From positions 4,141,427 to 4,205,426 of the forward strand of contig OZ244194.1 of the NCBI GenBank assembly GCA_965216665.1: a stretch of DNA of 64,000 nt. The letters are read 5' to 3'. A program made the translations under genes and the position numbers. Shown here in pieces: positions 3,927-45,084 of this stretch (the first letter of the stretch is position 1; the number at the start of each line of letters is the position of its first letter). The notes under the pieces were generated by a model. The model searched no databases, was not told the DNA's origin, and saw nothing but the letters and a program-made list of their open reading frames with translations. The stretch comes from Arenicellales bacterium (GTDB taxonomy: Bacteria; Pseudomonadota; Gammaproteobacteria; Arenicellales; JAANXG01).

Positions 3927-4964
3927 TTAGTCCTCTTTAACTACCATTCCGCCATTGTCCAAAAACACTTTTAGATTCTCTGGGGTATATGCACCCTGCG
4001 GGGGCGGCGGGCTCGCGTTCATGCGCTCTATGGCGCTTCCGTGCACGGCCTCGTTGCCATATTCCGTTTCTCCGATCGCCCTGACGTACGGTCGTTGTAA
4101 CCGGTACTTGCCTTTCCGCGAATTGCGTAACTCGTCCATATGCCATGGTTTGTAGTGAGCGAGAAAACGCTCATCCACTTCGAGCCCTAGTGCTTTGGCT
4201 TTGTTTATAATCCAGTGTAACGCGATATTGGCCAATCCATCCTTTTCGTAGCCGCCGCCGATATTGGTATGGACTCCCGCGAACCAGAGTTGCCTCATGG
4301 TCTGGTCCGGGTTAAGTGCACTGTCCCACAATGTCGGTACGAACGGTTTGCGGCGTTCGTCAATGGCAAGTGCCTGGTAAGCGTTTTGCACACACCCTGC
4401 CAGCTCGACATCATGAAACTGGTACCGAGAATTGAAACCTTCAAAGATACCAATCGGTATACCGAGCGCGCCCACGGTATCCCAAACTCCAAGGAAACGA
4501 ATAGTAACAGGGCGACAACGATGGTCGGCGCGGAATTTCGTGATGACGTCTGGGTCCGCCGCGGAACGATATAGATCGTAAGCCTCGCGCATATAAAAGA
4601 CTTCGTCTTTTGGCAACAGACCGATAAGATCTATCAAACCAGATAGGCTGCGTACGGTGTACGCACCACGACTGAAACCGAATAGGAACAACTCGTCACC
4701 CGCAGCGTAGTTTCCAACGATAAACTGGTACGCTTCTACGATCTTTTCGGAAAGACCTCTTCCGAACGCACCGCCCACGAATTTGTCCCACCAGTTGTGT
4801 GTGCCGACGCCTAGGTCGTAGGAAGTGAGTTGAGATATTCCGCGGGAATCGACAGGATATATGGCGCGCGCTAACTTAACGACGTTGGTCGGCTTGCGTT
4901 TCCCCCGATCCTTTTGGTCGGGTTTGTTCCATGTGCCGTCGGCACACACGATAACACGTCTCAC
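3927..4964 (-). CDS. DUF2235 alpha/beta-hydrolase (Tle1-type phospholipase-like)
   Basis: 345 aa. Family hallmarks are present: VIVCADGTWNKP, the GxSxG nucleophile elbow FGFSRGAYTVRSL, GVWDTVGALG and FAGVHTNIGGGY. Confidence 0.85.
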   Translation of the reverse strand: MRRVIVCADGTWNKPDQKDRGKRKPTNVVKLARAIYPVDSRGISQLTSYDLGVGTHNWWDKFVGGAFGRGLSEKIVEAYQFIVGNYAAGDELFLFGFSRGAYTVRSLSGLIDLIGLLPKDEVFYMREAYDLYRSAADPDVITKFRADHRCRPVTIRFLGVWDTVGALGIPIGIFEGFNSRYQFHDVELAGCVQNAYQALAIDERRKPFVPTLWDSALNPDQTMRQLWFAGVHTNIGGGYEKDGLANIALHWIINKAKALGLEVDERFLAHYKPWHMDELRNSRKGKYRLQRPYVRAIGETEYGNEAVHGSAIERMNASPPPPQGAYTPENLKVFLDNGGMVVKED

Positions 4965-5281: not shown

Positions 5282-6610
5282 ATGCTAGCGAGACTGGGCG
5301 TCCTTATGGGCGTATTGCTTATTCTGAATGGGTGTGCCTCTGGACAGTACTACAGAAACACTTCCCAAGTGATCAAGGGTCAGCCCTTCAAGTTAACCAA
5401 TGTCAATTCGTTGGCCAAGGAATTTTCGGTTTCGGACCGAGTGCTAAAAACGAGGCTGAATCTTCTAAACAGCTTCTACAGCATAGGTCGCGGCGGCGTA
5501 TTCAAGTACCTGTTTGAGGAGCGAGAAAGTTGCGATGTAGAGGGCAACCAGGCAGTCGGGCCGATGTATTTAAACGCAGATAGGCCCGTAAACGCCTTCG
5601 TTCAGGTGAATAGCACTGCCGCAGTGAAAGAGCGAGAACGACCGGAGAGTGCGTCAAAAGAAACGACGGGGCCGGAGGGAAAAGACGCAGGACGAAAGAA
5701 GAGCGCGCCCACCGAGATAAAGGTAACTGTATCGGTAGATGATGGAAGTAAATCATCAGTAAACAAAAAGTCAGAGTCACCCAGCGAACTTTCAGTGACG
5801 TCCACAATAAACATCAATTCACGCCTGCACACGCTGGAGCCTGCGGACCGCATCGAGCAGGTTGTCTCACTTATTGCCCCAGTGCCGGATGGTGTTGACA
5901 TCCTAGGTTTGTCGGACCCATTTGAAAAAACGCTAGTGCAGTTTGGAACGGAAGACACAGAAGTGGGGACTTCTTTGGAATTACCGTTAGGAGTTAACGA
6001 AGGGAATTTGTTTAAAGCCACCCCAAGCGTATCGAGGAAAATCTCCAGAAAACTGGCACGGCAATTCGCGACGAAGAACGTTCAGGTCTCCGAGCTCCGT
6101 AACGTCTTATTGGTGTTTCTGGACGGAGGCCCCCAGGGGGCGGACATTGCCGGTCAGGCGACGACGGGTATTAACGTCGCGCTCTCGCCGTCTTTATGCC
6201 ATGACGTCGTGAAGAAAATACCGATAGTTGATCCTGACAAACCAGGCAATATTGAATTTGAAGGTAAAGAGCCAAGTTGCTACATACCCGGCATACTGGC
6301 GATCCATGCCTCTATTGCTGTCGTGAGACGTGTGAAGCACGGTTTCAAGACCGTGAAGGAGGACGACGATGTTATCGCCCAGCAAGTATTTCAGAACGCG
6401 TCGATCTTCGAGCTATGGAGGAACCCTGAGCGCTTGTTTGCATTGGAAGGCGAGGAGGGAAAGCTTCTTGAAGAGGGACATGGGTCGCCGATCGTATTCG
6501 CGAACTATGATGATGCGAATTTGTACCGGTCGAGGATGAATATGCCCGCAAGGGTATGCGAAGTCTCGAACGTTGTCAGGAGGTACGACCCGGGAAGATG
6601 TAAATTGTAG
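5282..6610 (+). CDS. Hypothetical lipoprotein
   Basis: Internal start at 5282 preceded by AAGGAGGG. It has a lipobox signal, MLARLGVLMGVLLILNGC. I recognise no family. It is divergent from the DUF2235 gene. Confidence 0.6.
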   Translation: MLARLGVLMGVLLILNGCASGQYYRNTSQVIKGQPFKLTNVNSLAKEFSVSDRVLKTRLNLLNSFYSIGRGGVFKYLFEERESCDVEGNQAVGPMYLNADRPVNAFVQVNSTAAVKERERPESASKETTGPEGKDAGRKKSAPTEIKVTVSVDDGSKSSVNKKSESPSELSVTSTININSRLHTLEPADRIEQVVSLIAPVPDGVDILGLSDPFEKTLVQFGTEDTEVGTSLELPLGVNEGNLFKATPSVSRKISRKLARQFATKNVQVSELRNVLLVFLDGGPQGADIAGQATTGINVALSPSLCHDVVKKIPIVDPDKPGNIEFEGKEPSCYIPGILAIHASIAVVRRVKHGFKTVKEDDDVIAQQVFQNASIFELWRNPERLFALEGEEGKLLEEGHGSPIVFANYDDANLYRSRMNMPARVCEVSNVVRRYDPGRCKL

Positions 6611-6750: not shown

Positions 6751-7638
6751 ATGCTTAAAGCGCTAGCCGCTGGATTGCTTTTGATTCTGAGTGCTCATGC
6801 ATGCGCCGAGACAGTGCGCTTCGCAACCTTGAACACATGGTGGCTGTTCGACGACGTGGTGCCACATACGCGCTGGGCCGGTCAACGGGTAGGGCAGACG
6901 TATCTGGACAAGTTGGATAAGGTGGCGCAGGCGATTCAGGAAATCGACGCGCACGTTATCGGATTGCAGGAAATCGAGGGACCTAAGGTCCTTCAAGATC
7001 TTAATGAAAAGCTTGACAGTTTGGGTGCTGGATATCCGTACCTGTGGGTGGGTCAAGGCACAGAATCTTTTACCGGTCAGGATGTGGCGATTTTGAGCCA
7101 TTTTCCACCACTCATCGAGCCTGTCTTACGGTATCCTGGTCTGACCGAGCCGTTTTACGCCGAGCAGGGTGGTTATCCTCGTGTTGCGGCGCTCCAGAAG
7201 TTTATGCGCGTAGACGTGGAAATTAGCGATGAAAGCGTTTCGGTATTTGTGGCCCATTTGAAATCCCAGCGCGGCGGTGAGGGGGCCGAGGAAGAACGGC
7301 TCGCACAAGCCCGGGTTGTACGTCGTATCGTACGGGCCGTAGCCGAGAAGGGCGAACCGAACGTAGTCCTGATGGGAGACATGAACGATGATCACGGAAC
7401 GGCGACACTCTTAACGCTTCGAGGGCTGACCGATGGATCGTATCCCTTTAGTCAGCCGTCCGATCGTATTGCGCCGGACGACAGGTGGACACACGATTTT
7501 AACGGAAACAAAGAGCAACTCGACCATATCCTACTCAACAAATTCATGAATGACCGAGTGATCGATGCGAAAATCGTGCGGTTCGGCGACGAGGTGAGCG
7601 ACCACGATGCGTTCGTTGTGGACGTTGATTTCGACTAG
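6751..7638 (+). CDS. Secreted endonuclease/exonuclease/phosphatase (EEP, DNase I-like) family protein
   Basis: Signal peptide MLKALAAGLLLILSAHACA. EEP motifs present: FATLNTWW, VIGLQEIEG, VLMGDMNDD, LDHILLN and the C-terminal SDHDAFVVDV. Confidence 0.8.
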   Translation: MLKALAAGLLLILSAHACAETVRFATLNTWWLFDDVVPHTRWAGQRVGQTYLDKLDKVAQAIQEIDAHVIGLQEIEGPKVLQDLNEKLDSLGAGYPYLWVGQGTESFTGQDVAILSHFPPLIEPVLRYPGLTEPFYAEQGGYPRVAALQKFMRVDVEISDESVSVFVAHLKSQRGGEGAEEERLAQARVVRRIVRAVAEKGEPNVVLMGDMNDDHGTATLLTLRGLTDGSYPFSQPSDRIAPDDRWTHDFNGNKEQLDHILLNKFMNDRVIDAKIVRFGDEVSDHDAFVVDVDFD

Positions 7639-9224: not shown

Positions 9225-9414
9225 CGAATAGTCGGTTCAAACGCTGGCGACAACGGCTGGGCTGGGGTCGTGAGCTAATGTGGGGCTACGGATTGCGCTA
9301 CAGCGTCAAAACACAATGAACCATACCGCTCTTGTAGATCCGGATTGATTCAGGCAAAAAGATCTCGTTTACCAAGTGCGTGCCGATGCCATCGTAGGTG
9401 GTAAGACGGCACGA

Positions 9415-9464
9415 GGTGCCAGACTGGTTGAGAGGCACCCTCTGGCGTCGGCCAACCGGATTTT
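9415..9464 (+). promoter_or_regulatory. Copy A of the conserved pseudoknot-capable element (RNA leader or ssDNA structure)
   Basis: GGTGCC(9415-20) pairs with GGCACC(9434-39). CTGGTTG(9424-30) pairs with CAACCGG(9453-59). An ATTTT tail follows. It aligns with 29155-29204 and 42207-42257 with compensatory changes. Confidence 0.6.
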
Positions 9465-9604
9465 GTCACTGAACTGGTAGCACCCTAAACCGCTACCGGA
9501 TATTTCCTAACCGTCCCAAAAGGGTCACCATGACTCGCCCTTTGGGGCGGAGTGTCATCGTGTTCTCGCGGGACTTTCGATGAGTACGACGAAGGAGGCC
9601 CACT

Positions 9605-10003
9605 ATGGCTAATGACTATGTAAATCGATACATCAGCGATGACATCTTGAGCATCAAACGCATAGAAAAAGTCGACGATCACGGGAAGATCACCTACCGG
9701 TTCCGAGGCAGTAAGTTCTACGGCCGAAAAGCCGATCTGCACAAGCGCGAGGGTTGGTTGACTGCAGAAGGCTACCTGTCGCAGAAAGCCTGGAAGACAC
9801 TGGAACCGTGGGCGGAGTTACTGGAAAACGGTCGCTCTGGCGTGTCGGTTCGGGTGAAGAACCTGCAGGAGCAAAAGCCCAAGTCATTTATCCCGCAGAC
9901 GGGTGATAACGCGGGCGAAGCGGTGACGGTGCTGAAATACCGCATCAATACGATCGTCTCAGTGAAACCGCAAGACGGCGAAGTGGTCACGATCGAAAAC
10001 TGA
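9605..10003 (+). CDS. Hypothetical protein (132 aa)
   Basis: Good SD (AAGGAGG, 6-nt spacer). It is followed by a strong intrinsic terminator and is the first + strand gene before the transfer module. I recognise no family. Confidence 0.55.
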   Translation: MANDYVNRYISDDILSIKRIEKVDDHGKITYRFRGSKFYGRKADLHKREGWLTAEGYLSQKAWKTLEPWAELLENGRSGVSVRVKNLQEQKPKSFIPQTGDNAGEAVTVLKYRINTIVSVKPQDGEVVTIEN

Positions 10004-10030
10004 CACACTCTCTTGTTTTAAACTTTATTA

Positions 10031-10058
10031 AGCCCGGCTTGGCGCCGGGCTTTTTCTT
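10031..10058 (+). terminator. Rho-independent terminator
   Basis: AGCCCGGC-TTGGC-GCCGGGCT hairpin followed by TTTTCTTTC. Confidence 0.7.
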
Positions 10059-10221: not shown

Positions 10222-10698
10222 ATGCAATTACTCATTTTCGTTCTGATCATCGCGTTCGGTGCCGGAAGTATAGCGAGCGCTGAAGCAGTGCAAGTCGGTC
10301 GTTATGCGGTGCTTACCCCTACCGCACCCATGCCCCAACAGTTTCCGTTATTGGCGGTGCAGAGTTACGCGTTGCCGGTTTCGGTAAATACGGTAGGTGA
10401 AGCAATCCAGTTCGTGCTCGCGGGGACGGGTTATGCATTGGCTGCCTCCAAATATCGCGACCCGCGTGTCGAGTCGATGCTGGCAGCGCGTTTGCCGAAC
10501 GTGCAACGGCGGCTTGGACCAGTGCGTGTCGATCATGCCTTGCGGGCCCTGGCCGGTCCGGGCTTTGAGTTGGTGGTCGATCCCATTCACCGTCTGGTCG
10601 CGTTCGACCTGTCCACGCGCTACCTGGAAGAAAGCGGAAAACGGAGCGTGCTTGGCAGTCAACCGTCTGCGCAGCCAGCGAAGGGGTGGTCGCCGTGA
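10222..10698 (+). CDS. pilL: PilL-like ICE protein (PFGI-1-class transfer region)
   Basis: Start MQLLIFVLIIAFGAGSIASA (signal peptide) after GAGGA. VGRYAVLTPTAPMPQQ...TVGEAIQFVLAGTGYAL resembles the PilL family that opens this type of transfer region. The assignment is from recall and synteny. Confidence 0.6.
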   Translation: MQLLIFVLIIAFGAGSIASAEAVQVGRYAVLTPTAPMPQQFPLLAVQSYALPVSVNTVGEAIQFVLAGTGYALAASKYRDPRVESMLAARLPNVQRRLGPVRVDHALRALAGPGFELVVDPIHRLVAFDLSTRYLEESGKRSVLGSQPSAQPAKGWSP

Positions 10699-28946: not shown

Positions 28947-29154
28947 GGTCAACCTCCGGTTGTCTTGTAAGGGCATTATATAACGGATACGCGTACTACA
29001 CGATGACTGACGACGAAATCAGAGTGACATCCGGAACCCAAGTTTTGGTGCATGGGGGTAGTATTTTGGTATTTTCAACTGACGATATTGAGAGTAATAT
29101 TTGGTGAGAATTTAAAGACGGTCCGTCTGGCTACACCAGGTGGCCACAGGGCAA

Positions 29155-29204
29155 GGCGTCAGGCTGGTTGAAAGACGTCCTCTGGCATAAGCCAACCGGA
29201 TTTC
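29155..29204 (+). promoter_or_regulatory. Copy B of the conserved pseudoknot-capable element
   Basis: GGCGTC(29155-60) pairs with GACGTC(29174-79). CTGGTTG(29164-70) pairs with CAACCGG(29193-99). An ATTT tail follows. The spacing is identical to copy A. Confidence 0.6.
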
Positions 29205-29368
29205 CTCTCATTTAGGTCCTCTGGACCGATCCTTTCATTCTGTGCGACGGGCTACGGGCTTCCCACGCCCAATACTGTCGCACGCCTTGCTCAACCCTGT
29301 CGGGGATATGACTATCCCTCTTCAGGGGGTTGTTGTGTTTCCGGCAGAACCTATTGGAGGACACAACG

Positions 29369-39078: not shown

Positions 39079-39495
39079 GTGGCGTTTGAAGGTGATGATG
39101 TCTGCAGCCGGTTGAGCCGGTACGGCCTTGAGCATTGGATTCCTGCGGTGTCGCAACTGCTGGAATGCGTGTCAGGGGCAGAACCGTGGTTGGATGACGA
39201 CCGGGACCAGCCGGCCGAACGGATCGGAGCAAGCCTCGAGAGAATTCGGTTGCTCGCGGAACCCGTGCGAGATGGCGCACTCTGTGAACTGATCACCCAA
39301 CTCCTGGTGTGGCATGTCGCGGTCCGGCGCGAGGGAGTCTATTGGAACCCGCTTGAGACTCGTTTCCGAGATTTTATCCAAGACGCCGACCCGTTCTCAG
39401 GTTGGATGCACTCCCAGCGATCCTGCACGGAACTCGAGGTGTATCGATGGCTAATCGCGCGGGTCGGGCCGTTGACCGACGGTAACGGACAATGA
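39079..39495 (+). CDS. Hypothetical protein (138 aa, GTG start)
   Basis: First gene of a translationally coupled four-gene set. It has an ATGA overlap with the next gene. Confidence 0.45.
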   Translation: MAFEGDDVCSRLSRYGLEHWIPAVSQLLECVSGAEPWLDDDRDQPAERIGASLERIRLLAEPVRDGALCELITQLLVWHVAVRREGVYWNPLETRFRDFIQDADPFSGWMHSQRSCTELEVYRWLIARVGPLTDGNGQ

Positions 39496-40448
39496 CCAGC
39501 CCACATATGGACATTATCGTAGTCGGGCTGATCGCGGGAATGGTCTTAGTGCTAATCACTCTCGGCATTCGGAAACAGGGAAAACAATTCCGGTCCACAC
39601 CGGTAGTCCGAGGCGACGAAAGGGAATCGGAGGTCAGTCTACAGACCCTGCCGTTGTCGCGTCTCCGCCCCTTAACCGGCTTGTCGGACTCAGGGTTTGA
39701 GGCCCTCTACGTCCCGCTCATCCGACGCGCCGAAGCGTTCCTAATGCCCATTAGTCGACACGTGACACCGACGCAAGCGGCTTCATTTGCACTTGGGGGG
39801 TTAATGGAGCGGTTGACGAAAGCCCTGACCTATCGCCGGGCCGTCACCTTCGAACCGGGACAGCCAGAGGAGACGACGCGCAAGAACTGGGACCGGTGGA
39901 CGTATGCCGTGGCCTGTGCCGTGGTGTGTCGTTATGTGTTGGGCGCAGTGCAGTCGGTGGAAGTCGCGCTCAATACAGAGCCGGAACGACGCCTCTGGAA
40001 TCCGTTGCTGGGCCCGATTGAGGAGGAAGAAGACATCGCCGACGTGATCGTGTGGCGAGCGCCCCGATGCATGCCGAGTTGGCGGAACGTGTTGATGCTT
40101 CGTCAGGTCGTGCCCCGAGACGGTCTGGCGTGGCTTTTGAACACGGGGGCGGTGTTTTCGGCACTGGCCAGCACGGTGACTCGAGTCGTTGAGGTGGCAC
40201 ATCCGTTGGCAGATTTGGTTTGTCGAGCGGAAGGCGACCAACGGGCCAACTCTGTAGGCGCGCGCAAAGAGAGCGCCGGGAGCGCACGCGCTCTCAGCGA
40301 AAGCACAGGCGCTGATCACCGACTCAGCAGTGACGAAAACAGAAAGGCAACCGCCGCCCGAGGACAGAACGCACCTCGCGCCCCCCGTCCTCGCAGGACG
40401 AAAACTGAACAGCGGACCGTAAGTGGGGTGTGGGGATCTGGAGTGTAG
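39492..40448 (+). CDS. Hypothetical membrane-anchored ICE protein with a low-complexity basic tail
   Basis: 318 aa. N-terminal TM helix MDIIVVGLIAGMVLVLITLGI. The C-terminal ~90 aa is Arg/Ala/Ser-rich. I make no firm family assignment. Confidence 0.5.
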   Translation: MTSPHMDIIVVGLIAGMVLVLITLGIRKQGKQFRSTPVVRGDERESEVSLQTLPLSRLRPLTGLSDSGFEALYVPLIRRAEAFLMPISRHVTPTQAASFALGGLMERLTKALTYRRAVTFEPGQPEETTRKNWDRWTYAVACAVVCRYVLGAVQSVEVALNTEPERRLWNPLLGPIEEEEDIADVIVWRAPRCMPSWRNVLMLRQVVPRDGLAWLLNTGAVFSALASTVTRVVEVAHPLADLVCRAEGDQRANSVGARKESAGSARALSESTGADHRLSSDENRKATAARGQNAPRAPRPRRTKTEQRTVSGVWGSGV

Positions 40449-40491: not shown

Positions 40492-41121
40492 ATGGATGGG
40501 AGGAAGCTCTTGGAAGCGCTGATTGAGGATGTCAATGAACGCCAGGCCGCAGGAATCCGGGACTGTCCGTCCCGGCAGATCCTGGAACGCATTGCGAGCC
40601 TGTCGGTGCGCGGGTTTGGCCGGTTCCTGGACACCGCACAGCGTCAGATCCGGGTCCGCTATGACTCAAAACGAATTACTATCGAGATCGACACCGACGC
40701 CTGGCGGCGGATCTTGGACAGCCATGCCGAGGAAATCCTGGTGATGGACGACGTGGACAAGCTCGTCATGTTCGGTGCGCCTCGGAGTGTCATCCGCGAC
40801 GTCACCGGTGCCCATCATATGTGTGTCACCGCCCGGCGCCGGTCGCTGGGGGTGGACGCGAAGAGCGGCAAACCCCGAGCGCTGTCGGAAGACGAGGAAG
40901 CCGCGGTGCGTGAGGTCTGGCAGAGCCTTGCTGTCCTAAATCTCGCCGATCGCCTGATCATGGCGAGCCGGATCACCGGATTGAGTATCGGCAATCTGTG
41001 GCCCCTGTTGCAGGTAGAGGAGTTGCTGGAGGGTCCCACCGGCGCAGAAGGTCGACGACCCCATAACGGCAAAGCGTATGACGGACTCAGCGAGCCCCGG
41101 CCCCAATACGGTCCAGTTTAA
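40492..41121 (+). CDS. Hypothetical ICE protein (possibly DUF2857-like)
   Basis: ATG at 40492 with GGAGG 6 nt upstream. It is ~209 aa. It sits next to a PFL_4669-like gene near the integrase, as in SPI-7/PFGI-1-type islands. The family call is recall-based and weak. Confidence 0.4.
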   Translation: MDGRKLLEALIEDVNERQAAGIRDCPSRQILERIASLSVRGFGRFLDTAQRQIRVRYDSKRITIEIDTDAWRRILDSHAEEILVMDDVDKLVMFGAPRSVIRDVTGAHHMCVTARRRSLGVDAKSGKPRALSEDEEAAVREVWQSLAVLNLADRLIMASRITGLSIGNLWPLLQVEELLEGPTGAEGRRPHNGKAYDGLSEPRPQYGPV

Positions 41122-41872
41122 CCTCGATATCCGGTTCACCACCGACGACATCAACGCCCTGTTTTTGGGCGGGATCGAGGGCAGACGGAGTCCGTATATC
41201 CCCCGCTACGGGAAGGTGGTCCAAGCTCTCCATCATCTATATACGGAGATGCGGGCCGACAATCCCTTTGCCGAGAACATCCTGATCGAGCTCGATATCC
41301 GGTTGGCGGCCCAGTTGCGCCTGGCCGAGAAACGGATCGCGCTCTGTCAGCGGGAAGCCCGTACGGCCGAGGGCGAAGAAGGGATTGTGATCCGGCCGCT
41401 CACGCGGCCCCACCCGTATGTGCACGAAAACGTGATGACCTACAACGAATACGGCCGTTATCTGTTGCGGGCATATGGACGGAGTGATCTCGCCATCCGC
41501 TGGATCCGGACGATCAACGGCGCCTCGCACCTGGAGTCCCGGTTGGCCGAGCAGTGGATCCGAGAGCTCTTGAAACGGCACCGGGGCCTGAACGCCGTGA
41601 TCCTCCACTACGCCAAACGCCTGCGGCACGTCACCCGCCGTGAGGTGATTGAGGGTAGTGAAAAAGCCCGAGCGCTCTCCGAATCACTCGGCCGGCACGT
41701 GGCCCCGGATGTCCTCAGCAAGGCCCGGCGCTGCAAGTTCTATCGGGTGAACCGGTTCGGGGCTGCGGACATGAGCGCGCCCACTGGCAGCGCCGACATC
41801 TCGAAGAATCAGAGCTTCTCCAGTATCGACGATTCCGAGCCCACTACGCAGATCCGCAGCCACCCGCATTGA
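41078..41872 (+). CDS. ICE protein, PFL_4669-family-like
   Basis: 264 aa. Segments match my recollection of the family consensus: ADNPFAENILIELD (cf. DDPYADW.L), TYNEYGRYLLRAYGRSDLAIRWI (cf. NPYGY..A.LL..YD.L.R), and HVTRREVIEGSEKARALSESLGRHVAPDVLSKARR (cf. GVTR.DV...A..A..G..P.DVL.G..RA). Confidence 0.55.
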   Translation: MTDSASPGPNTVQFNLDIRFTTDDINALFLGGIEGRRSPYIPRYGKVVQALHHLYTEMRADNPFAENILIELDIRLAAQLRLAEKRIALCQREARTAEGEEGIVIRPLTRPHPYVHENVMTYNEYGRYLLRAYGRSDLAIRWIRTINGASHLESRLAEQWIRELLKRHRGLNAVILHYAKRLRHVTRREVIEGSEKARALSESLGRHVAPDVLSKARRCKFYRVNRFGAADMSAPTGSADISKNQSFSSIDDSEPTTQIRSHPH

Positions 41873-42105: not shown

Positions 42106-42137
42106 GACGACCCGGACCCGGCCGGGTCCGGGTCGTC
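42106..42137. repeat. 32-nt perfect palindrome
   Basis: GACGACCCGGACCCGG|CCGGGTCCGGGTCGTC, with 16-nt arms and no spacer. Confidence 0.8.
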
Positions 42138-42206
42138 AAAGACCGATTTTCGAGCCGTCCGATTGTCGTCGGCGCTTCTTGAAGGGGCAAATCGGCAATC
42201 AAGAGA

Positions 42207-42257
42207 TTCCCCAGGCTGGCTGAAAGGGGACACGGGCAATTCGCCCAGCCGGATTTT
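42207..42257 (+). promoter_or_regulatory. Copy C of the conserved pseudoknot-capable element
   Basis: TCCCC(42208-12) pairs with GGGGA(42226-30). CTGGCTG(42216-22) pairs with CAGCCGG(42246-52). An ATTTTT tail follows. Both stems differ from copies A and B but remain complementary. Confidence 0.55.
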
Positions 42258-42492
42258 TGTCATTGAGTCGGTGAGCGTCTGCGCTTGCCGGCACCTCTTC
42301 ATACAGCGAGTGGGTGTTTCGCCCACTCGCCCCTCTATGCCGCGAGGTATGCGGCGTCTCCCGTAGTGGGGTTATACGAATCTCCAGATTCACTAGGCCC
42401 CGCATTTGCCATCAACCCGAATCCTGGGGGTGACCCGCCACCTCTGGACGTGGGGGTCCATCTAGATTCATCAGCTTTGCCTTAAGGAGGTG

Positions 42493-42681
42493 ATGTCTCC
42501 CGTCAATGACTGGCTGTATCAGCCTGCGGGGCGGTTCACTTGCGTTGTGGACCGCAGCCTCGTCAGGCACGTCGGTGGCTACGTGGCCGACGTTAAATCT
42601 CCGCCCAGGTTTGAAGACAGTGTTTCGTCTTCAAAGGCTGGGCCTGCCGCCGGGCAGGCCCCAGTCGCGGACTCACACTGA
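42493..42681 (+). CDS. Possible small ORF (62 aa)
   Basis: AAGGAGG lies immediately upstream, but the spacer is only 2-3 nt. The 3' part contains two stable hairpins, so coding status is doubtful. Confidence 0.3.
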   Translation: MSPVNDWLYQPAGRFTCVVDRSLVRHVGGYVADVKSPPRFEDSVSSSKAGPAAGQAPVADSH

Positions 42682-42733: not shown

Positions 42734-43612
42734 ATGAAGCCTTTGGCGTGGGATTTACTACAGGTGCTGCGGCGCAACCGAGATGGGTCGCACGCCACCC
42801 AATATGAACGCAAGCGCATGGTGATGCAATTCGCCCACGATGTGCACCGGTTGGGATTTAAGGGGTTGCGGCTCAGGAACGTCAGCCAGAAGCATGTGCT
42901 GAAGGTCATCGAGTGCTGGCGACGGGGCGAGCACCAACCCCCGGTCAGCGACGCCACCTTGATGAATCGCCTCGCCGCCCTGCGCTGGGCCCTGGAGAAG
43001 GTCGGCAAGTCTCGGGTCTTGCCCGAGACCAACCGGGCGCTGGGTCTCGAATCCCGAAGACCGATTCCGAGTGTCTCCAAAGCCCTGACCCTGACTGAGA
43101 AAGCGCTTAACAAAGTCACCGATGCACACATCCGCCAGAGTCTCCGACTCCAGGCGGTGTTCGGGCTGCGGCGGTCCGAGGCAATGAAGATCCATCCCCA
43201 ATGGGCGGATCGAGGAGATCGACTTCTACTCAAGGCGAGTTGGACCAAGGGCGGCCGGCCGCGAGAGGTCCCGATCCGTACACAGGAACAACGCCAAGTG
43301 CTGGAGGTGGCCAAGGTGCTCGCTGGGAACGGCTCGCTAATCCCGAATCACAAGAGCTATCGGCAGCACCTCGCGACCTGGGAGTACCAGACGCGGCGTG
43401 CGGGGCTCTCCAAGACCCATGGGCTGCGCCATGCGTACGCGCAGGCCCGCTACCAAGAGCTCACCGGGCGCAAGCCGCCCATCCTGGGCGGCATGCCCTC
43501 CCAAGCTCTCACTGGCGAGCAGAAAGCCCAAGACCGAGAGGCCCGGTTGCAGATTGCCGCAGAGCTGGGGCACAGCCGGGTCAGTATCACGAATGTCTAT
43601 TTAGGCGTGTGA
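42734..43612 (+). CDS. Tyrosine recombinase (short integrase-family protein, 292 aa)
   Basis: Catalytic signature present: GLRRSEAMKI (Arg), THGLRHAYA (HxxR) and ELGHSRVSITNVYLG (His...Tyr). Confidence 0.75.
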   Translation: MKPLAWDLLQVLRRNRDGSHATQYERKRMVMQFAHDVHRLGFKGLRLRNVSQKHVLKVIECWRRGEHQPPVSDATLMNRLAALRWALEKVGKSRVLPETNRALGLESRRPIPSVSKALTLTEKALNKVTDAHIRQSLRLQAVFGLRRSEAMKIHPQWADRGDRLLLKASWTKGGRPREVPIRTQEQRQVLEVAKVLAGNGSLIPNHKSYRQHLATWEYQTRRAGLSKTHGLRHAYAQARYQELTGRKPPILGGMPSQALTGEQKAQDREARLQIAAELGHSRVSITNVYLGV

Positions 43613-43625
43613 GGCGAACAAATTC

Positions 43626-44012
43626 ATGGCGCAAGACCAACAGAAAAGTGCCGAGCGACCACACCTCGCCTCGACCCCACTACTATGGGATATCACCGAG
43701 ACAGCACGGCAGTTGGGCGGCGTTTCGACACGGACCGTGCGGCGGCTCGTCGCCAGTGGGGAGTTGCCCCAGATCAAGGTCCGCGGAGCGGTGCGAATTC
43801 CGGCGCAAGCGGTCACGAGCTGGGTCGCCCGCCAGATCGAAAACGCGGATAATACGAGCCGCGTGGGATCTGGCGTGCGTAGCAAGGAGGTAAGAGCATG
43901 CCATACAAACGCAAGAACAGTCCGTGCTGGTGGGTATCGTATACCGACCCAAGCGGGCAAAGAGTTAGACGTTCTACTGGAACCACGGACCGCAAGGAAG
44001 CGGCGGCCCTAG
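43626..44012 (+). CDS. xis: Excisionase/AlpA-type helix-turn-helix DNA-binding protein
   Basis: LWDITETARQLGGVSTRTVRRLVASGELPQIKVRGAVRIPAQAVTSWV matches the excisionase-family HTH pattern. Its 3' end overlaps the integrase start by 115 nt in another frame. Confidence 0.7.
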   Translation: MAQDQQKSAERPHLASTPLLWDITETARQLGGVSTRTVRRLVASGELPQIKVRGAVRIPAQAVTSWVARQIENADNTSRVGSGVRSKEVRACHTNARTVRAGGYRIPTQAGKELDVLLEPRTARKRRP

Positions 44013-44992
44013 AGGCCAAATGGAAACTCGAGACGTTTCGCGTTCAGCAATGGGAAGCGCAGCCGACACGAAGCTTCGAGGAGCTGATGGTTGGGTACTT
44101 GAAAGCCACGGCGAACGAGAAGCGATCGGCGAACAAGGACCGAGAGCGGACGCGGCACCTCCGTGCACATTTCGCAGGCCGAATACTCGGGGACTTATCG
44201 GCGAAAGACGTACGGGCGTACATCGCGTTTCGTAAACAAGCCGGCATTAGTTCCAGCACGATCAATCGTGAACTGGCGTTATTTTCGGCCGCGATCAATT
44301 ACGCGGTCCGCGAATGGGACTGGGAAATACCCAATGTCGTGCGAGGCAGGAAACTCAAAGAACCAGAAGGCCGCGTGCGTTGGTTGAACGAGGCAGAAGT
44401 CGAACAGTTGTTGGATGCGGCAGGACGGGAACGGAACTCATCCCACTTACCGGATTTCATCCGTTTGGCATTGCACACGGGATGTCGACGAGACGAGTTG
44501 CTGCGCCTCGAATGGGAACGGGTCGATTTCAGCAACGGCCTTATCCTGCTGGACGGTCGGCACACGAAGTCGGGAAAGCGTCGCAGTGTTCCGATCAATG
44601 CAACCGCGAGGCAAGCGTTGTTAAACAGGAAGGACTTTCGAGAAATGCATTGCCCACAAAGTCCGTGGGTATTCTGCAACCGACGAGGATGTCGTATCGC
44701 ATCAGTACGTCGAAGCTTTATGACGGCGTGTGCTCGTGCCGGAATCAAGGATTTTCGGATCCATGATTTGCGACACACTTGTGCCGCATGGCTCGTCACA
44801 CGCGGCGTTCCGTTAACGGAAGTGCGTGAGTTGTTAGGACACAGTACCGTCAGGATGACAGAGCGTTACGCGCATCTGGCACCGGAAAACGTACGCGTCG
44901 CTGTTGCACGCTTGGACGTTCGGTCACATTCTGGTCACATTGTGGAACTGGACGCCGAACGTGAGAAGCGCAAGGAGGCTGTAGGTGGTTGA
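43898..44992 (+). CDS. int: Tyrosine integrase (tRNA-targeting, P4-like)
   Basis: 364 aa. N-terminus MPYKRKNSPCWWVSYTDPSGQRVRRSTGTTDRKEA. The catalytic region has RRDELLRLEW, HDLRHTCAAWL and GHSTVRMTERYAHL. It ends 16 nt from the tRNA-Phe 3' end. Confidence 0.9.
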   Translation: MPYKRKNSPCWWVSYTDPSGQRVRRSTGTTDRKEAAALEAKWKLETFRVQQWEAQPTRSFEELMVGYLKATANEKRSANKDRERTRHLRAHFAGRILGDLSAKDVRAYIAFRKQAGISSSTINRELALFSAAINYAVREWDWEIPNVVRGRKLKEPEGRVRWLNEAEVEQLLDAAGRERNSSHLPDFIRLALHTGCRRDELLRLEWERVDFSNGLILLDGRHTKSGKRRSVPINATARQALLNRKDFREMHCPQSPWVFCNRRGCRIASVRRSFMTACARAGIKDFRIHDLRHTCAAWLVTRGVPLTEVRELLGHSTVRMTERYAHLAPENVRVAVARLDVRSHSGHIVELDAEREKRKEAVGG

Positions 44993-45008: not shown

Positions 45009-45084
45009 TGGTGGCCAGGGACAGAATCGAACTGCCGACACGGGGATTTTCAGTCCCCTGCTCTACCGACTGAGCTACCTGGCC
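45009..45084 (-). tRNA. tRNA-Phe (anticodon GAA)
   Basis: The reverse complement reads GGCCAGGTAGCTCAGTCGGTAGAGCAGGGGACTGAAAATCCCCGTGTCGGCAGTTCGATTCTGTCCCTGGCCACCA. It folds as a cloverleaf with anticodon loop CTGAAAA and an encoded CCA. Confidence 0.95.

Follow-up and report, generated by a model that had tools for sequence, protein, structure and literature searches.

What is the role of a short intergenic element that recurs three times, always in the same orientation, in an integrative and conjugative element (ICE) of an Arenicellales bacterium? The window analysed here, a stretch of 64,000 nucleotides, holds the right-hand part (at least 36 kb) of an ICE of the MPF_G (ICEclc/PAPI-1/PFGI-1) class that ends at a tRNA-Phe gene. 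The element lies on its + strand at 9415-9464 (copy A), 29155-29204 (copy B) and 42207-42257 (copy C), where a first-pass annotation had placed it. Comparison of the copies and their relatives argues that this is very probably a folded, strand-specific, single-stranded element. The best overall explanation, which we advance tentatively, is that it serves as a folded cis-acting leader signal of three ICE units.

The three copies stand alone in the window. The pattern CTGGYTG-N{15,30}-CARCCGGAT has exactly three matches, all on the + strand, and none in 100 dinucleotide-preserving shuffles, and relaxed searches for either conserved block gave no fourth site in the window. A covariance model of the kind proposed in the first-pass annotation was searched against the entire window without filters, and it scored the three copies at 73-84 bits and the next best site at 8 bits. 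All three copies are inside the ICE, and the 19 kb of chromosome within the window holds none. The element is ~85-100 nt long, and its copies are spaced 13-20 kb apart on a single strand. Every copy is oriented like its downstream open reading frame (ORF), which has a Shine-Dalgarno (SD) sequence and begins 141 nt (A), 165 nt (B) or 236 nt (C) further on, in line with the ~140-240 nt estimated earlier. The tract between the 3' arm of the first stem and CARCCGG is 13, 13 and 14 nt in A, B and C. The spacing is indeed equal in A and B and 1 nt longer in C, as had been described, but the tract itself had been given as 12-13 nt and should read 13-14 nt.

Only two related sequences were recovered from public data. 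One is a 7.4-kb Logan contig (L074) that carries an orthologue of copy B at 6483-6527 and a TraG that is 76% identical to that of the window, the sole close relative among 5.8 billion clusters. When the intergenic regions of copy B and L074 are aligned, the element and ~35 nt upstream form the best-conserved island, and the flanks diverge. The other is a 680-nt ENA contig (L098), recovered when the 88-aa ORF that follows copy B (orf88) served as the query in an exhaustive HMMER search. The search gave ~30 representatives, one of them on L098, where a diverged element lies 224 nt upstream of the start of the orf88 homologue. L098 was accepted as a relative because of this synteny and a shared hairpin at the 3' end of the leader, and its element is probably, though only probably, a true relative. 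Further homologues, whose absence the first-pass annotation had named as a point that would count against it, have been found, but they are only these two, and the one in L098 is weak.

The pairing of stem 1 (S1) is well supported by these alignments and is the solid part of the proposed structure. S1 is a hairpin of 5-6 bp in which the stem varies and the 13-nt loop, NRR-CYGGYUG-ARA, is almost invariant. Its arms, S1a and S1b, read GGUGCC/GGCACC in copy A (9415-9420 and 9434-9439), GGCGUC/GACGUC with one G·T wobble in copy B (29155-29160 and 29174-29179), GGCGCC/GGCGUC in L074, UCCCC/GGGGA in copy C (42208-42212 and 42226-42230; 5 bp, in register) and AGCGC/GCGCU in L098. Relative to copy B, L074 has changed a T:A pair to C:G. 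In MAFFT alignments, standard pairs occupy 23 of 24 S1 cells with four sequences and 28 of 30 with five, while the pairs changed on both sides number four of six and five of six, respectively. Shuffle controls reached the observed values in at most 1 of 500 cases, and sliding the partner by 1-3 columns left pairing at only 22-53%. When columns were shuffled and every possible helix of at least five pairs was searched, four doubly changed pairs were reached in none of 300 shuffles. If all proposed pairs are considered in the three copies and the one orthologue (MAFFT), 51 of 52 cells are standard pairs and five pairs are changed on both sides, a result matched by 0 of 500 shuffles. RNAalifold found S1 independently, and S1 alone folds with -6.7 to -10 kcal/mol. 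The folded nucleic acid postulated in the first-pass annotation is thereby strengthened, since L074 and L098 keep S1 through new compensatory changes.

An H-type pseudoknot formed through a second helix, stem 2 (S2), is plausible but thin. The CYGGY of the S1 loop can pair with an invariant RCCGG located 26-27 nt downstream to give a pseudoknot with a 5-bp core, and the helix order S1a-S2a-S1b-S2b, with pairing, is found in all members. At full length, S2 is CTGGTTG/CAACCGG in A (9424-9430, in the loop, and 9453-9459, with the 5-bp core at 9455-9459) and B (29164-29170 and 29193-29199), and CTGGCTG/CAGCCGG in C (42216-42222 and 42246-42252). The arms of both stems read in the three copies just as first reported. 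All seven S2 pairs are intact in the four close sequences, with one compensatory change only, in copy C (U:A to C:G). L098 is left with the 5-bp core alone (CCGGU/ACCGG), in which an otherwise invariant U·G wobble has become C:G. Across all five sequences, the core CYGGY/RCCGG pairs in 25 of 25 cells. The two inner pairs of S2 are in competition, over 2 nt, with a conserved 4-bp loop-3 hairpin. Thus, the pseudoknot suggested earlier remains plausible through a core kept in five sequences, but with one compensatory pair and one wobble change it is weaker than had been stated.

The loop-3 hairpin overlaps the inner two S2 pairs but not the 5-bp core. It reads UGGC-N4-GCCA in A (9443-9446/9451-9454), B (29183-29186/29191-29194) and L074, GGGC-N5-GCCC in C (42234-42237/42243-42246) and AGGA-N4-UCCU in L098. 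The cores described so far (9415-9459, 29155-29199 and 42207-42252) are followed by tails (9460-9499, 29200-29227 and 42253-42292) that open, 3' of S2b, with an unpaired conserved U-rich tract, AUUU..UCAYUKA (ATTTTGTCACTGAA at 9460-9473 in A, ATTTCCTCTCATTTA in B and ATTTTTGTCATTGA in C). A further hairpin (HP2), of 4-11 bp and unrelated sequences, starts 14-15 nt 3' of CCGG in the four sequences in which it was checked. It had been noticed as an extra hairpin of copy A, where it is present at 9474-9481/9492-9499 (CTGGTAGC/GCTACCGG), and the other copies have equivalents at an unchanged offset, namely GGTCC-TCT-GGACC at 29215-29227 in B and an 11-bp stem with two wobbles at 42267-42277/42282-42292 in C. 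L098 has a possible 4-bp counterpart nearer to CCGG. With the alignment anchored by hand over S1, the loop-3 hairpin and the S2 core, pairing holds in 73 of 75 cells and compensatory change is seen in 8 of 15 pairs, which 0 of 5000 shuffles match, with the caveat that structure and alignment were derived from the same few sequences.

The stem wobbles bear on the strand that folds. Counted by eye, they amount to about five independent cases and are G·U on the + strand, where they comprise the invariant S2 wobble, those of S1 in B and L074, and the HP2 wobbles of A and C (two in C). The wobbles favour the + (mRNA-sense) strand, in a suggestive way only, and therefore speak against an Frpo-type promoter on the template strand. 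Whole leaders, taken from the element to the start codon, are more stable than shuffles on the + strand (z of -3.7, -3.0, -1.7 and -3.75); the + strand clearly beats the - strand in L074 and copy C, and the two are equal in A and B. Coding potential is ruled out for the element because copy B has an in-frame stop codon and copy C a frame-breaking 1-nt indel. Two other candidate functions were also rejected. Sigma-54 and sigma-70 readings of the conserved blocks, made by eye, have unfit spacings and hexamers, and the promoter scanner finds none, while a terminator composed of S2 and ATTTT would have too long a loop, and no terminator-like site is called at any copy.

The genes behind the three copies suggest what such an element may do. 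Copy A is followed by a 132-aa ORF (9605-10003, + strand; SD, no family match, a singleton in the protein collection), a strong intrinsic terminator (10030-10052, + strand; 9-bp stem and T-run) and then pilL2, whose true start is likely near 10223, and the type IV secretion system (T4SS) genes. Copy B lies after traG and is followed by the 88-aa ORF (29369-29635, + strand; Arg-rich conserved stretch), a RadC-like JAB gene (29726-30259), a second strong intrinsic terminator (30386-30413, + strand; 12-bp stem, with weak terminator-type Rfam matches), RHS cargo and the relaxase module. Copy C is situated between a gene for an AcaB-like protein and a 62-aa ORF (42493-42681, + strand), beyond which are two tyrosine recombinase genes (42734-43612 and 43898-44992) that adjoin tRNA-Phe (45009-45084, - strand). 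The earlier description of the copies as upstream of transfer genes needs qualification for copy A, where pilL2 and the T4SS genes do lie beyond, but behind the 132-aa ORF and a strong terminator.

Whether the element belongs to the 5' leader RNAs of three transcription units in the ICE is, in our estimation, close to an even call. These units would be orf132 followed by pilL2 and the T4SS genes, orf88-radC followed by the downstream genes, and orf62 followed by the two recombinases. A leader RNA is the most economical form of the folded element because the copies have the same sense as the genes, are contiguous with leaders that are structured up to the SD, and occur once per module. The conserved loop and pseudoknot could be read by one common trans-acting factor, or by RNA polymerase itself, and the three modules would thereby be switched together. 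The mechanism we favour is processive antitermination of the nut/put type, in which polymerase that has passed the element would read through the terminators at 10030-10052 and 30386-30413 and so enter the long gene sets for the T4SS and the relaxase, for which no promoter of their own was recognised. Antitermination is proposed because the succession of element, small ORF, terminator and long promoter-less gene set is how lambda nut and HK022 put are arranged, and in units A and B the element does lie upstream of a terminator that guards an operon. Even so, we regard antitermination specifically as speculative and, on balance, rather unlikely. A shade more doubtful is the wider proposal that a pseudoknotted leader RNA, one per transfer module, acts as an RNA-based master switch of a Gram-negative MPF_G ICE, by loading a factor or by altering RNA polymerase itself, with the result that the terminators in front of the T4SS, relaxase and recombinase genes would be overridden.

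Leader-RNA antitermination is known in Gram-positive conjugative elements, namely conAn of the pLS20 type (PMC8191782) and Tn916 (PMC11658703). The element resembles nut, put, conAn and Tn916 in that several paralogous copies per mobile element stand at the heads of operons in fixed orientation, in that the signals are short stem-loops with stems that differ by compensatory changes, and in that they are located upstream of intrinsic terminators parting a first small gene from long gene sets. A sequence or model match to any of these was neither sought nor found, and the host here differs in being a Gram-negative MPF_G ICE. In architecture, a pseudoknot with an inserted hairpin is unlike boxB and the two put stem-loops, and we know of no nut/put-like system in Gram-negative MPF_G ICEs.

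Several observations weigh against a folded leader signal. The alignment has five sequences in all, from three or four independent lineages, and statistics of R-scape grade are therefore out of reach; of the five, L098 has a weak model score (9 bits, E ~1). The loop-3 hairpin and the S2 core were positioned by hand, and S2 depends on a single compensatory event. RNAalifold favours a nested helix, broken in copy C, that joins an upstream AGGUGG block to GCCAACC and takes the same covarying column as S2. One C·A mismatch in L098 would be a wobble on the - strand, and the 71-nt element alone is no more stable than shuffles on either strand (z ~0). Unit C yielded no terminator. Upstream of the copies no promoter could be assigned, for which reason transcription of the element is assumed, and no sigma-70 consensus promoter was called in the three intergenic regions or after the terminators. 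Moreover, the motifs common to operon fronts in related ICEs are protein-binding DNA sites, for BisC in ICEclc and TprA in PAPI-1.

These precedents raise the alternative that the element is a duplex DNA operator or upstream activating site for an ICE-encoded activator and defines a transfer regulon, an explanation that we consider unlikely but substantial. It would parallel the BisDC boxes of ICEclc, the TprA site of PAPI-1 and the AcaCD/AcaB sites of IncC, and the positions of the copies (in front of the pilL2 module, behind traG and in front of the integrase genes) are analogous to those of known sites. The transfer-competence promoters of ICEclc share a 27-bp motif that lies 59-274 bp 5' of the start codons (PMC9286271, S3 Fig) and is occupied by BisC in ChIP-seq (PMC9286271; PMC12409273), while in PAPI-1, TprA binds at -254 to -287 of pilL2 (PMC8565334). 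The ICEclc motif likewise recurs, tens to hundreds of bp ahead of start codons, in the promoter regions of core operons that include those for the pilus/T4SS and the integrase, and the TprA site is likewise a cis element 5' of the pilL2 module in a PFGI-1-class ICE. The absence of a consensus sigma-70 promoter fits activator-dependent promoters, and the AcaB-like (PFL_4669) protein encoded near copy C (41078-41872) is a candidate binder, its family being an activator of acaDC in IncC. However, the ICEclc motif is 15-27 bp long and is bound as a duplex by BisC/BisD, and the TprA site is a single duplex site for an RHH protein, whereas the present element is a three-copy family with several covarying helices, in which the conserved block, at ~85-100 nt, is longer than would be expected of an operator. 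From centre to centre, 28-29 bp separate the S2 half-sites, which have a fixed T/C asymmetry. A folded single-stranded element is ranked first because a protein operator leaves unexplained why the arms of three to four helices (five of six S1 pairs, the loop-3 hairpin and HP2) change and yet stay complementary. In a by-eye comparison with eight ICEclc sites, only the 3' block CCGGAT(A)TTT faintly resembles TTCCGGATAGTTGC (Pint) and CCTGATATTTGC (PalpA), and the 33-bp TprA site AGTATTTAAAGCTCAATTAGCACCCCGTACTGT (PMC8565334) was rejected as a counterpart, being unrelated in sequence. No bisDC-like gene was found in the window, in that its larger ORFs have no ParB- or FlhC-type match in Pfam; the left part of the ICE is outside the window. 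Some ICEclc sites also have short flanking inverted repeats of differing sequence, such as CGGGGCUG/CGGCCCCG at P88400 and CATGGTGGT/ACCACTATG at PtraI (PMC9286271, S3 Fig). A parallel with our variable stems was tried and set aside, as these repeats are marginal over shuffles (summed p = 0.04).

DNA hairpins would require compensatory changes just as RNA does, and it is conceivable, if rather improbable, that the element is a single-stranded DNA (ssDNA) signal on the transferred strand, either an ssi-like priming site for complementary-strand synthesis or an ssDNA promoter from which early genes are expressed in the recipient. All copies are on one strand, at long intervals, and a RadC-like gene lies 3' of copy B; radC-type genes are common in plasmid leading regions. 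Frpo and the ICE/plasmid motifs in Rfam are likewise structured, strand-specific and tied to conjugative elements, but an Frpo-type promoter is a long imperfect hairpin of ~300 nt with -35 and -10 sequences within its stem. It must fold on the template (-) strand, on which the conserved wobbles of the present element become C·A mismatches. Here the element is ~85 nt with helices of 4-8 bp, and no -35/-10-like hexamer pair was found in the three regions, nor in any stem. A priming site needs no fixed place at the head of leaders structured to the SD. A ligand-sensing pseudoknot riboswitch governing the three leaders is a good deal less credible. The pseudoknot is small, its conserved nucleotides are concentrated in loop and tail, and the downstream hairpins could act as an expression platform, but there is no Rfam riboswitch match at E <= 10, no terminator or SD-sequestering partner is conserved in all copies, and the downstream genes suggest no metabolite. 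It is hardly credible that the element is a small RNA gene or a selfish palindromic repeat, like repetitive extragenic palindromes (REP) or miniature inverted-repeat transposable elements (MITE), with no role for its neighbours. In favour, a structured unit is repeated in intergenic DNA, and HP2 of copy A with its U-rich tail could end a short transcript, but a repeat of this kind does not account for three copies confined to the ICE and missing from the chromosome of the window, for a position relative to orf88 that is kept in L074 and L098, or for an orientation that is always that of the downstream ORF.

Comparison with described families did not assign the element to any of them. At gathering thresholds, Rfam 15 reported only two tRNAs in the window, and at E <= 10 there was no match at 9400-9500, 29150-29230 or 42200-42300. 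The first-pass annotation had suggested an identity with motifs of the STAXI or DUF3577 type. STAXI is a small pseudoknot and possibly acts as ssDNA, and we take Rfam 15 to include STAXI, DUF3577 and the riboswitch pseudoknots; the suggestion is not borne out, given the lack of a match even at E <= 10. As judged from its sequence, the element fits no described family and is a new cis-acting structured signal of a mobile element.

The ICE lineage is also rare, and across a protein collection of ~15 billion sequences and the contig collections scanned, the element was met in a single genome and on two short metagenomic contigs. Among TrbI-like homologues, the closest has 51% identity, all ICE proteins of the window that were looked up are singletons, and TraG is ~26-28% identical to its best plasmid-borne MPF_G relatives in PLSDB, which are mostly on Pseudomonas aeruginosa plasmids. 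A blastn search of plasmids gave no match. In a genome contig collection, the pattern CTGGNTGARAN{14,24}CCANCCGGATTT had 71 single matches, all of them chance or coding and none in an ICE context. A stricter pattern had 0 matches in metagenome contigs and would miss L074; it was too strict because L074 is without ATTT and CAGR. Looser patterns in viral contigs gave chance matches only, and orf88-anchored scans of metagenome and viral contigs gave no relatives. Four distant MPF_G ICEs (L075-L078; TrbI identity 33-38%) have no such element, and a Geopseudomonas locus with a tandem homologue of the orf88 domain, in a Ter cluster, has no such leader. A literature search for the sequence strings of the element returned unrelated primers only.

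The surroundings of the copies have further structured features. The orf88 leader ends in a nested hairpin, CAACCCKGUCGGGGA...UCCCC...CMGGG, and then a U/G-rich tract right before the SD. This hairpin is at 29296-29346 of the window, where it is called terminator-like, at 6628-6672 of L074 and at 258-300 of L098, and compensatory changes have kept it in three lineages. On the other side of copy B, at the 5' edge of the island conserved with L074, a perfect 13-bp palindrome, AGACGGTCCGTCT (AGACGG-N-CCGTCT; 29116-29128), is found at this copy only and is unique in the window; its version in L074 (~6447-6459) differs in the central base only. We regard it as a candidate operator for a dimer-type protein. 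A 12-bp palindrome, CTACC-NN-GGTAG, lies 10-25 nt 5' of stem 1 in L074 (~6462-6473) and L098 (~41-52), is imperfect in copy B (29136-29148) and is represented by its right half alone in copy A. This palindrome could belong to the 5' flank of the RNA or be a second operator. After the AcaB-like gene and 70 nt 5' of copy C is a perfect 32-bp palindrome, GACGACCCGGACCCGG/CCGGGTCCGGGTCGTC (42106-42137), that has no T-run on the + strand.

The transfer genes of the ICE encode PilL2, TraD, a DUF4400/DtrJ-like protein, a TraC/VirB4-like protein, TraU and TraG_N, and the ICE also encodes a MobH-type relaxase, a DUF2857 protein and the AcaB/PFL_4669-family protein. The MobH/TraI_2-type relaxase match (39079-40448) falls entirely within a 318-aa ORF, which overlaps the 138-aa ORF before it, and the relaxase may be split or of unusually small size. 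The cargo block between radC and the relaxase module consists of four DUF6531/RHS-repeat ORFs in a row (575, 428, 413 and 1079 aa; 30665-38226) and looks like an RHS toxin locus with displaced or fragmentary N-terminal copies. The 88-aa ORF belongs to a small family of ~30 representatives (P0026-P0055) with an invariant Arg-rich AYHAGRGRL..LPRGRR.DSLADFLA. Some members of the family are tandem-duplicated proteins of 177-180 aa, and one adjoins a tellurite-resistance (Ter) cluster in Geopseudomonas aromaticivorans. A single-sequence AlphaFold model of orf88, helical with a disordered Arg-rich loop, is of low confidence (pLDDT 62) and uninformative. Among the cargo products encoded to the left of copy A are a type I restriction-modification methylase (HsdM; 1158-2879, - strand), a protein with a Tle1-like phospholipase domain of the type VI secretion system (3927-4964, - strand) and an endonuclease/exonuclease/phosphatase-family protein (6751-7638, + strand).

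While the apparent rarity of the element limits its immediate generality, a short element with clear stems that is present in three copies in one ICE offers a convenient handle for compensatory mutagenesis. It makes directly testable the question of how transfer operons of 10-20 kb that sit behind strong terminators are expressed. In the work cited here, control of transfer in the ICEclc/PAPI-1 class is described in terms of DNA-binding activators, and a shared leader element that conserves its structure would add a layer of RNA or ssDNA to that control. If the proposal of a master switch is true, the element would be the RNA counterpart of the protein-DNA regulons of BisDC, TprA and SetCD that are known for this class.

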